This document shows positions 2,764-34,674 of a DNA stretch of 62,083 bases, piece by piece (position 1 is the first letter of the stretch; each line of letters starts with the position of its first letter). The DNA is taken from the NCBI GenBank assembly GCA_035289665.1, contig DATDWO010000071.1:1-62083 (forward strand). The letters run 5' to 3'. The DNA is from Candidatus Nanoarchaeia archaeon. GTDB taxonomy: Archaea; Nanobdellota; Nanobdellia; Woesearchaeales; SM23-78. The notes below the pieces were generated by a model, which was not told where the DNA came from, ran no database searches, and was given only the letters and a program-made list of their open reading frames with translations. The position numbers and the translations under genes were made by a program.

Positions 2764-3388
2764 ATTAGTGGCCTACGCCATGGATTTTGCTTCCTTCTTC
2801 ATGGAACAGATAAAAGATCCCGATACGGTCCGAGCGATCATCTTATTCGGGAGTACAGCCCGTGGAGATCAGACACTGGAAAGCGACATAGATCTATTCA
2901 TCGATACCGACACGATAAACAATGTTTTTGTAAATAAAGTCTTGGATGATTTCTACGCAAGCCTTAAGTTTCAGAAATATTGGAAGTTACTTGGAGTTTC
3001 AAATTCGATTTCTTGCAAAGTCGGGCGATTGGAAGAATGGGAATTAAAAAATTCCATGATAGCGAATGGAATTGCTATCTACTCAAAATATGCCGGAAAG
3101 CCAGATGGAGAGCTATACGTCTTATTCTTAGTCGAAGTGAAAGGCTTGCACAAGGACAAGGTTAGGATTTGGAGGAGGCTCTACGGCTACAAGCAGAAAG
3201 TTAAAGATAAAACATATGTCCTACCCGGCCTCATCGAACGCCTCGGTGGGAAGCGCCTCTCTCCCTCTGCCTTTTCCATTCCAGCAGCACGATCCTACGA
3301 GATGCAGGACTTCCTCTCAAAAAACAGTCTAACATATCAAAGGATGGACATCTGGACGAACAACCTCAACGTTCCCGGCAACAACTAG
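2750..3388 (+). CDS. nucleotidyltransferase domain protein
   Basis: ILFGSTARGDQTLESDIDLFID motif. Confidence 0.75.
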   Translation: MKSSKLVAYAMDFASFFMEQIKDPDTVRAIILFGSTARGDQTLESDIDLFIDTDTINNVFVNKVLDDFYASLKFQKYWKLLGVSNSISCKVGRLEEWELKNSMIANGIAIYSKYAGKPDGELYVLFLVEVKGLHKDKVRIWRRLYGYKQKVKDKTYVLPGLIERLGGKRLSPSAFSIPAARSYEMQDFLSKNSLTYQRMDIWTNNLNVPGNN

Positions 3389-22088: not shown

Positions 22089-22120
22089 CCCGGGGAGGGC
22101 TTCGGCTCTCCTTGGGTTTT
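22089..22120 (+). terminator. 12-bp hairpin with UUCG loop followed by a T-run
   Basis: cccggggagggc-ttcg-gctctccttggg then tttt. The three G:T pairs work only for the + strand RNA. Confidence 0.45.
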
Positions 22121-22451
22121 ATCTTTCCAGAACTCTTTCCAAGTCCTCTCGAGTAAGATCGGCTTGCTTAAGTATGCTTAGAAGCGTTCCCTTTTTTAAT
22201 TCTGAGTGCATGGGCACTACAGGCTTTCTTGTCAAGAACCGCCTATTAAGGAGGGAACATAAAATAGCGGTTCTTGAGCATGTTCAGAAATTTCCAGCTA
22301 TCCAAAAAACAGACTGATGGAAATTTCTGACATTTCATCCCATTGCGATAACCAACCATAATGACATGGCTTCCTTTCTGATCGAGAGCTTCAAAGCCAA
22401 ATTTGGAAAGAATTTGACCATTTCTTTACCAGAGAGAAGAGGAAGTTTCAT
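22119..22451 (-). pseudogene. hicA: hicA toxin pseudogene (1-nt frameshift plus 103-bp insertion)
   Basis: The ATG overlaps the hicB stop (ATGA). Reads MKLPLLSGKEMVKFFP, then a frameshift in a 3-nt run (plus ttt 22402-22404), then KFGFEALDQKGSHVIMVGYRNGMK. The insertion at 22230-22332 follows, then RKPVVPMHSELKKGTLLSILKQADLTREDLERVLER-stop. Confidence 0.7.
22230..22332. mobile_element. two-hairpin miniature element, copy A (inside hicA)
   Basis: TGTCA...TGACA termini. Hairpin 1 is 22232-22242 / 22267-22277, linker gcatgt, hairpin 2 is 22284-22295 / 22319-22330. Removing exactly 103 bp restores the hicA frame. Confidence 0.6.
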
Positions 22452-22669
22452 ACAGCGGCTGCAACCTGACTTAGAATCGGTTTACTCGGCTTTGTTAAGG
22501 CCTTTAGCTCGTCTGGCTCAGCGTGCTCCAACCACAGCTCGAAGGCTTCCTGAAGGTTCTTTAGGGCTTCTTGCGACGTTTTGCCTTGACTGGCTAGCTC
22601 AACTTCTACACCACGAGCTACATAATACCTTCCATCTTTTGAGACGACCGCTGAAAGCTTTCTTTCCAT
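22448..22669 (-). CDS. hicB: HicB-family antitoxin
   Basis: SAVVSKDGRYYVARGVEVELASQGKTSQEALKNLQEAFELWLE is typical of the HicB/UPF0150 fold. Confidence 0.7.
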   Translation of the reverse strand: MERKLSAVVSKDGRYYVARGVEVELASQGKTSQEALKNLQEAFELWLEHAEPDELKALTKPSKPILSQVAAAV

Positions 22670-22814: not shown

Positions 22815-23484
22815 ATGCACAATAAAACTAAACAAGAACAGTGGAATGATGTGTATGATAAATTCTATGGAAACAGGCGTTCAGTTTGGAGAGAGAACGC
22901 TACTCCTTTTTTTACGAACAAAATTGACTACCTAAAACATAAGAAAGTCAAAACTGTCCTGGATGCTGGCTGTGGCGATGGGAGAAACCTAATCGCTTTT
23001 GCAAACGCTGGTTTCGAAATTACAGGGGTTGATATATCTGATATAGCATTGAAGAAATGCCACAAAGCAGTTGGAAGGAAAAAAAAATGTTACCCTTAAG
23101 AGAGAGCCGCTTGAGGAATTGAGTTTCAAACCATCATCATTTGATGCTATAATATGCGATTTTGTTCTTGTGCATGTAGAAGAAATTGAAAAAGTATTAT
23201 CTAATTTCCACAAGGTGCTAAAAATGGGGGGCTATGCTTTACTGGAATTTATATCGACAAAAGATGAACGTTGTAACCGCGGTCAAAAAGTTGGACGGAA
23301 TCAATATCTCCAACATGGTACATTCATCAGAACATTTGACATCAAAGATATCGAACGCCTGTTAAAAAAATTTAATATACTATTTATTGAAACAGAGTAT
23401 TATACTGACCCACACCACGGCGGCGGTTATCATAGGAAAGAAAGGCATATACATCATTCCTATTTTGTAATTGCACAAAAATAA
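22815..23484 (+). pseudogene. class I SAM-dependent methyltransferase interrupted by a frameshift in an A9 run
   Basis: VLDAGCGDGRNL is motif I. ORFs 22815..23099 and 23071..23484 join across aaaaaaaaa 23079-23087 (..KAVGRK | KNVTLKREPLEELSFKPSSFDAIICDFVLVHV..). Confidence 0.6.
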
Positions 23485-31230: not shown

Positions 31231-31320
31231 TGTCAAGAATCGCCAAATAAATATCATAGCGATTCTTGAGCATGTTCAGAACTCCACTCAATTTCAATCC
31301 TAAAAAGTGGAGTTATGACA
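31231..31320. mobile_element. two-hairpin miniature element, copy B (upstream of gyrB)
   Basis: Same architecture as copy A, TG-[tcaagaatcgc...gcgattcttga]-gcatgt-[tcagaactccac...gtggagttatga]-CA. Stem changes are compensatory relative to copy A. Confidence 0.6.
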
Positions 31321-31335
31321 TCACAAGTTATATAA

Positions 31336-34674
<3,339 letters not shown>

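Follow-up and report, generated by a model that had tools for sequence, protein, structure and literature searches.

A two-hairpin insertion in an archaeal hicA gene represents a family of putative single-strand transposons in DPANN archaea

In a 62,083-nt stretch of DNA from a Candidatus Nanoarchaeia archaeon (contig DATDWO010000071.1 of assembly GCA_035289665.1; the whole stretch is henceforth referred to as the window), a toxin gene of the hicA type is interrupted by a 103-bp insert made up of two adjacent hairpins (22230–22332, minus strand). Pattern scans of public collections recovered hundreds of relatives of this insert, mostly intergenic, which share its layout of two hairpins joined by a short linker. 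We consider the insert to be probably a non-autonomous transposable element of the IS200/IS605-like single-strand type, belonging to a family of DPANN archaea. This type of mechanism is proposed because the element has hairpins near both ends, leaves no target duplication, is inserted in a fixed orientation next to a target on one side only, and pairs bases beside the hairpin foot. By analogy with IS200/IS605-type transposons, its insertion sites appear to be picked by base-pairing. The initial annotation of this DNA had already likened the insert to IS200/IS605-derived palindrome-associated transposable elements (PATEs) mobilised as single-stranded DNA, an idea that gains support from the one-sided target, the similarity between this target and the element's far end, and the covariation of the linker.

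The interrupted hicA gene

The hicA pseudogene (22119–22451, minus strand) follows an intact gene of 73 codons in the hicB position (22448–22669, minus strand), whose product has a weak match to Pfam DUF7387, and the two overlap by an ATGA on the minus strand. A gene pair with this ATGA overlap is also present at intact loci, e.g. at locus L060. The window copy of hicA is broken at two places, by the 103-bp insertion and by a 1-nt frameshift, in which alignment with L060 shows one A to be missing from an A4 run in GTCAAAATTC (window 22413–22415). Removal of 22230–22332 together with restoration of this base results in a 76-aa protein that matches the whole Pfam HicA_toxin profile (positions 1–58 of 58, E = 1.3e-15) and shows up to 84% identity over 99% of its length to intact HicA proteins of 74–77 aa from metagenome-assembled genomes (MAGs) of Nanoarchaeota and Woesearchaeota. 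We assign the gene to the HicA toxins on this full-length profile match and its upstream partner gene, the same pair being intact at L060. What the initial annotation had described here, i.e. an intact hicB with its ATGA overlap, a hicA gene with two lesions and a full-length HicA rebuilt by deletion of the 103 bp, was borne out, the last of these once the lost A is put back.

The insert is not coding sequence that the relatives share. In the intact HicA proteins the residues ...RNGMK/RKPVVPMH... (the slash marking the place of the insert) run on uninterrupted, and at the DNA level the alignment with the intact hicA of L060 shows one gap, exactly 103 bp long. In that gene the empty site reads ATGAA(A)/AGAAAG, and the empty-site sequence for the hicA locus is GGGATGAAAAGAAAGCCTG. 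The boundary of the insert slides by 1 nt, 22230–22332 and 22231–22333 giving the same product, and in line with the exact gap no target-site duplication is seen. Both the insertion and the frameshift are found base for base in three other assemblies from different samples, each with an identical HicB (L053, L054 and L058), so the insertion is not an assembly artefact. Four further loci differ: in L055 a gap of Ns (3240–3300) is followed by a divergent 5' part of the gene, and in L056, L057 and L059, from other samples, the contigs end within hicA, 27–90 nt upstream of the element. These contig ends and this divergence could be due to population heterogeneity or to repeat-induced assembly breaks.

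The hicA gene is thus dead, and the antitoxin-position gene beside it is intact. As a description, the earlier statement that a toxin had been inactivated and its antitoxin spared therefore stands; as an effect of the element it has to be qualified, since the inactivation is not owed to the insertion alone and the frameshift is a second inactivating lesion. The toxin-inactivation angle is real but anecdotal, one PIN-like gene being disrupted elsewhere in the family.

Architecture, linker and target site

All copies were oriented with their AT-rich hairpin first, and that end is referred to as the left end. Read in this way on the minus strand, the copy in hicA (copy 1) consists of TG, the left-end hairpin, the linker ACATGC, the right-end hairpin and CA, with all conserved features intact and TGTCA...TGACA at its bounds. 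The left-end hairpin (22284–22330) has the foot TCAGAA/TTCTGA, a perfect 13-bp stem and a 21-nt loop, and the right-end hairpin (22232–22277) has the foot TCAAGAA/TTCTTGA, a perfect 11-bp stem and a 24-nt loop, followed by the terminal CA at 22231–22230. The arms, 13 nt (22284–22296 and 22318–22330) and 11 nt (22232–22242 and 22267–22277) long, are 100% complementary, exactly as they had been annotated. Between the hairpins lies the linker (22278–22283), which we propose as the guide on the basis of covariation and of the DNA fold. Directly 5' of the left end is the hexamer ATGAAA (22333–22338), the Met and Lys codons of hicA, which is kept in intact homologues and hence belongs to the host gene.

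When folded as DNA, a 123-nt stretch gave −22.6 kcal/mol (z = −5.6), and as RNA z = −4.5; in both cases none of 200 shuffled sequences folded as well. In the reading that we propose for ACATGC, the first A and the final C are bulged, CA pairs with the first two bases of the element (TG) and TG with the last two (CA). The minimum-energy DNA fold of copy 1 contains these stem extensions to the linker, and in it the flanking A also pairs with the linker T.

The element is not unique in the window. A BLAST search with it revealed a second copy of 90 bp (copy 2; 31231–31320, minus strand) in the intergenic space between a kinase-like open reading frame (ORF) and gyrB, with the same linker ACATGC and the flank TTGTGA. 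It shares the TG...CA ends and the core TTCTTGAGCATGTTCAGAA with copy 1 (two matches in the window, 0.06 expected). In its right-end stem one G:C pair is replaced by A:T, a compensatory change, and its other stem differs from that of copy 1 yet still pairs. The left-end foot of this decaying copy is damaged (TCATAA vs TTCTGA).

Across the family the shared layout is TG, AT-rich hairpin, linker nCATGC, TCAAGAACC hairpin and CA. Written out in full with its surroundings, it runs from a host TTRAnA through TG, a first hairpin opening with TCAGAA or TCAAGAA and closing with TTCTGA or TTCTTGA, the linker n-CA-TG-C, and a second hairpin opening with TCAAGAACC and closing with GGTTCTTGA, to the final CA and the host again. 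Parsed elements are 69–285 bp long, and those of the oriented set (n = 56) 69–240 bp with a median of 114. Two subterminal hairpins are present in every copy and their stems covary: the feet are conserved, and the distal parts vary between copies yet stay complementary. For the five positions inside the foot, complementarity is 0.86 in the left hairpin (0.43 with shuffled partners), with 30 distinct 5-mers, and 0.71 in the right one (0.49 with shuffled partners). Larger copies at many loci (e.g. L142, L136, L009 and L006) have an additional inner hairpin in the loop, with a recurring tip of GCTTTAGC or GCTTCAGC or the complement, which is absent from the window copies.

Pairing also joins the terminal dinucleotides to the linker, with a 1-nt bulge in between that is present in 157 of the 188 parsed copies; the parses without pairing are mostly divergent subfamilies in which the hairpin foot was misplaced by the parsing script. 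At the left end, the dinucleotide and its partner in the linker occur in five multi-copy complementary states (71, 24, 12, 6 and 6 copies), and at the right end in two, CA with TG (157 copies) and CG with CG (8). The single strand accordingly folds into two adjacent hairpins, the stems of which are each extended by two base pairs to a central CATG. As the terminal dinucleotides pair with the linker, the first and last bases of the element lie side by side, opposite this palindromic CATG. With a foot common to both hairpins, the element ends in inverted repeats (TGTCA(A)GAA and TTCTTGACA).

The target is conserved on one side. In 108 cleanly parsed elements with a terminal CA, the sequence just 5' of the left end follows TTRAnA, and the opposite flank is unconserved. 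Counted away from the element, position −1 is A in 97 of the 108, −2 can be any base (A 46, T 31, C 21, G 10), −3 is A in 94, −4 is mostly G (45) or A (31), −5 is T in 88 and −6 is T in 80; the conservation was the same in the first 56 elements. The elements are therefore oriented as in IS200/IS605, their target lying directly before the left end and having no counterpart at the right. TTGACA, the right terminus of the element itself, is identical to this flank motif.

Further evidence came from a targeted scan for copies with a base other than T at linker position 4. It yielded nine true members, all nine with the linker nCACGC and all nine ending in ...GGTTCTTGA-CG instead of CA. In the eight of these that could be cleanly parsed, the host flank ends in G (8/8), compared with A in 97 of 108 copies of the main family (Fisher p = 1.2e-7). 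A change of the linker base is thus accompanied by a change of the final base in both the element and its target. This is how guide bases behave in IS200/IS605 elements, here in a geometry unlike that of IS608. One further copy, in L168 (minus strand, around 7181), combines the linker GCACAC with the right end TG, complementary as the model predicts; its left flank ends in A and not in the predicted G, a single exception in what is possibly a decayed copy.

Hosts, mobility and genomic setting

In the scan with the 19-nt core pattern, true relatives were found only in DPANN MAGs or in unbinned metagenome contigs. Matches of the core in Bifidobacterium, Rhodobacterales and others proved to be due to chance, lying in coding sequence without hairpins, and two scans of viral contigs with the core gave no matches. 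Two looser patterns, made up of the TCAAGAACC hairpin and the linker, each returned at least about 120 loci. Among the matches listed, the hosts are almost all Woesearchaeota, Nanoarchaeota/Nanoarchaeia, Pacearchaeota and Aenigmatarchaeota, and about 90 different assemblies (counted by eye) are represented, several of them with at least 10 loci. Some of the matching MAGs are labelled "uncultured Methanosarcinales", labels that we suspect to be wrong but that are unconfirmed. Many matches lie at contig ends, as expected of a repeat. As far as the scans show, the family is confined to DPANN archaea.

Copies are depleted from coding sequence. An open frame of at least 100 codons spans the excision point in 10 of the 56 oriented copies, compared with 85% of random positions at the same loci, and most of these ten sit at gene ends. 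There are three clear gene disruptions that are mended by exact in silico excision: hicA itself, a four-domain phosphogluco/phosphomannomutase (PGM/PMM) gene in L142 (minus strand, 2459–2569), in which excision gives a 463-codon ORF, and a PIN-like gene in L167 (1971–2081), with an ORF of 177 codons. All three copies are in sense orientation. That exact excision restores the PGM/PMM and PIN-like frames agrees with the exact gap at hicA in pointing to insertion without target duplication. Other arrangements tell of movement as well. In L006 (4707–5032) a two-hairpin element is nested in the hairpin arm of a larger one, again without duplication, and its foot TCAAAAA/TTTTTGA is a compensatory change. 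Several copies stand head to tail, abutting the ...TTGACA end of another copy, and such tandem arrays arise because the target motif matches the right terminus of the element. L025 and L036 carry near-identical copies from one metagenome within unrelated flanks. Judged from these sequence comparisons, the family is mobile.

Around the 56 oriented elements, the next gene beyond the right end points the same way as the element in 31 cases and the opposite way in 14, and upstream genes show no bias (27 vs 24). Genes with Fic-domain, nucleotidyltransferase and PIN-like sequence motifs recur in the flanks of copies (e.g. L346 5780–6736, L144 7129–7740 and L252 4164–5024). In the window, hicB is adjoined by a class-I S-adenosylmethionine methyltransferase (22815–23484, plus strand) in the form of two overlapping ORFs in different frames (22815–23099 and 23071–23484), one matching the N-terminal and the other the C-terminal half of the same profiles; the split is also called in other assemblies. 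From its sequence this appears to be another gene with a frameshift, next to the broken hicA. The gyrB gene next to copy 2 (31432–34674, plus strand) encodes a 1080-aa product with an intein at residues 452–877 (Pfam Intein_splicing, with a weak HNH_3 match inside).

Mode of transposition and alternative explanations

In the mechanism that we propose, a transposase of the HUH/Y1 type, of the IS200/IS605 kind and supplied in trans, would bind the feet of both hairpins and cut on the 3' side of two sequences, TTGAnA in the left flank and the terminal TTGACA on the right. The excised product would be a single-stranded circle, the donor being resealed free of scars, and the circle junction would read TTCTTGACA joined to TGTCAGAA (for the copy in hicA, GGTTCTTGACATGTCAGAAAT). 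Re-insertion would take place 3' of a new TTRAnA, selected by pairing with the linker and the hairpin foot; the copy described here would have landed after the ATGAAA within hicA.

The DPANN consensus TTGAnA resembles the target of ISDra2, which is TTGAT. The family is like IS608 and ISDra2 in its subterminal hairpins at both ends, the lack of target duplication and a short, specific target that is found directly 5' of the left end and not at the right. It also appears to be like them in having sites read by pairing beside a hairpin foot, a change of guide going with a change of target: in IS608, each hairpin foot is preceded on its 5' side by guide bases that recognise the cleavage sites, and altering these bases redirects integration (PMC3201880, PMC5934647). 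The IS200/IS605 family is, furthermore, the most widespread insertion sequence family in archaea (PMC13343696). The differences are considerable. The DPANN element carries neither tnpA nor tnpB, its hairpins lie only 2 nt away from the termini, the distances in IS608 being 19 and 10 nt, and its pairing is a plain Watson-Crick extension of the stem past a 1-nt bulge. The right end and the target both covary with one and the same base of the linker, and the two hairpins share a foot, hence the terminal inverted repeats.

Of the known short elements, the PATEs of haloarchaea are likewise archaeal, too short to encode a transposase, provided with near-terminal palindromes, devoid of target duplications and preceded by a short targeting oligonucleotide at the 5' end (PMC3119063). 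Terminal-only PATEs of about 52 bp exist as well (PMC3119063) and match the layout of the DPANN element, a left end fused to a right end. The likeness drawn in the initial annotation thus holds for the kind of element and not for the published definition: PATEs are defined as lacking terminal inverted repeats (Dyall-Smith et al. 2011; PMC3119063), which are present here. PATEs also have a longer distance from the 5' start to the palindrome, and their palindromes have been matched to known IS605-type transposons (PMC3119063), whereas no such partner was found for the DPANN element. Likened by its description, the Haloquadratum element SMR-A is the closest parallel with an unknown mechanism, being about 110 bp long, with inverted terminal repeats, no duplication, a strong target preference and a mobilising enzyme that is not known (PMC3119063). 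It differs in that it inserts into the palindromes of PATEs and IS605 elements (PMC3119063), and guide/target covariation has not been described for it.

Several observations weigh against an IS200/IS605-type mechanism or lend it no support. In 2.4 Mb of fetched loci plus the window, tblastn and phmmer gave no match to IS608 and IS200 TnpA seeds, and all-against-all clustering of ORFs revealed no recurrent transposase-like ORF near the copies (only housekeeping genes and toxin-antitoxin-like ones, i.e. Fic, nucleotidyltransferase and PIN). No long or autonomous version with the same ends was seen among the fetched loci, and no transposase among the subset of large window ORFs scanned with Pfam. 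Lone hairpins that might have been parts of long versions proved to be degenerate two-hairpin copies, the ORFs between two copies in L010 and L103 were ordinary genes, and those beside lone hairpins followed by GCATCC (L123, L138 and L139) included no transposase. To this may be added the spacing of the hairpins at 2 nt from the termini, unlike IS608, the apparent use of one linker position for both cleavage sites, and a left cleavage site that directly abuts the left end. The terminal inverted repeats and TG...CA ends are those of DDE transposons, a 1-bp duplication of the target base is indistinguishable from none, and there is no clear strand bias relative to neighbouring genes. A bolder version would make the family a minimal self-guided single-strand transposon of an undescribed kind, in which the 4-nt palindromic linker CATG splints both termini and specifies the target, one base change re-programmes both right-end cleavage and insertion site, and a non-canonical enzyme (a divergent HUH protein or another) moves the element; we see this as possible, if rather unlikely.

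Some of the same features would suit a conventional miniature inverted-repeat transposable element (MITE), for which a DDE transposase would bind the TGTCA(A)GAA...TTCTTGACA repeats, mobilise the element in double-stranded form and make a target duplication of 0 or 1 bp. The inverted-repeat termini with TG...CA ends would be explained, such ends being found in IS3, Mu and Tn7-type elements, and since the base next to the element is identical on its two sides (A...A, or G...G for copies ending in CG), the sequences are just as compatible with a 1-bp duplication. Moreover, a census of MITEs reported a very high density for a Woesearchaea genome, the elements not being characterised there (PMC11602168). 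What makes us judge a MITE of this type distinctly unlikely is that the target is conserved over six positions on one side only and mimics the far end of the element, and that the hairpin arms covary with each other and the linker with both termini, which binding of a double-stranded repeat does not require. The inverted repeats are there, yet a duplication of at least 2 bp, normal for DDE elements, is missing. A site-specific serine or tyrosine recombinase acting on a palindromic TTGA-CATG-TCAA at the joined ends and in the target would account for the linker region and the left junction, both imperfect palindromes with a centre of 4–6 bp, and for the missing duplication, as IS607-type serine recombinase elements make none either. 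We hold it to be quite improbable: position −2 of the flank is variable and the corresponding base of the element is always C, so the crossover region would in many cases contain a mismatch, for which recombinases of this kind have little tolerance. Nor would the covariation between the two arms of a hairpin be accounted for, and no recombinase recurs near the copies.

Two further explanations would place the family in the service of the host cell. It might be a host-domesticated repeat like the bacterial repetitive extragenic palindromic sequences (REPs) and bacterial interspersed mosaic elements (BIMEs), with a cellular role in transcript stability, termination or protein binding, and spread by a single-copy gene like those of the REP-associated tyrosine transposases (RAYTs). 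Short hairpin repeats, often paired and mostly extragenic, characterise these systems (PMC3333891, PMC8266576), and a Y1 HUH enzyme acting in trans is the presumed partner both of these repeats and of the DPANN family. The intergenic position of most copies, the paired hairpins reminiscent of BIMEs (PMC3333891) and the 31 of 45 co-oriented downstream genes fit such a role. REPs and BIMEs, however, are bacterial, carry a GTAG-type tetranucleotide at the 5' end, cluster around a RAYT gene and rarely occur in genes, whereas the DPANN copies have no conserved tetranucleotide of this type, can interrupt genes and, among the fetched loci, flank neither a RAYT-like gene nor any other recurrent one. 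The REP-type comparison of the initial annotation is thus the weaker of its two; as a separate explanation it seems improbable to us, and it overlaps mechanistically with the preferred one, RAYTs being Y1 HUH enzymes too. Alternatively, the insert could act at the RNA level, as a bulge-helix-bulge or other intron or as a small structured RNA gene, leaving hicA functional. Precise removal does restore the frame in hicA, the PGM/PMM gene and the PIN-like gene, all with sense-oriented copies, the hosts are DPANN archaea and the RNA also folds well. Yet 46 of the 56 copies have no ORF of at least 100 codons across the excision point, nested and tandem copies exist, and hicA carries its independent frameshift. 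A bulge-helix-bulge motif, with two 3-nt bulges separated by a 4-bp helix in a transcribed gene, is not formed: only one helix (UGUC/GACA) is possible, the two junctions face each other at one of its ends, and the exons offer no pairing. Such an intron is ruled out by this geometry, the intergenic locations and the extra frameshift, and a known RNA family by Rfam scans without a match (whole window at the gathering threshold, the locus at E ≤ 1); there are no tRNAs either. We give an RNA-level element hardly any credence.

We return, then, to a single-strand transposon of the IS200/IS605-like type. As a kind of element it is known, but the family, its host range, the layout of two hairpins splinted by CATG and the natural covariation of guide and target appear to be new; no description of the family was found in the literature, and searches combining DPANN with MITE or IS605 gave nothing specific. 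With no enzyme found among the fetched loci, the mobilising enzyme may itself be something new. The elements interrupt real genes, i.e. those of a HicA toxin, a PIN-like protein and a phosphogluco/phosphomannomutase, and, carried by roughly 90 species-level MAGs in spite of the very small genomes of DPANN archaea, they give rise there to pseudogenes, broken assemblies and wrong annotations, a source of such faults that has so far gone unlisted. The model predicts that a change of the linker T to C would shift cleavage and target from A to G, and the covariation of linker, end and target offers a ready-made comparative dataset on the evolution of guide-directed target choice in hairpin transposons.

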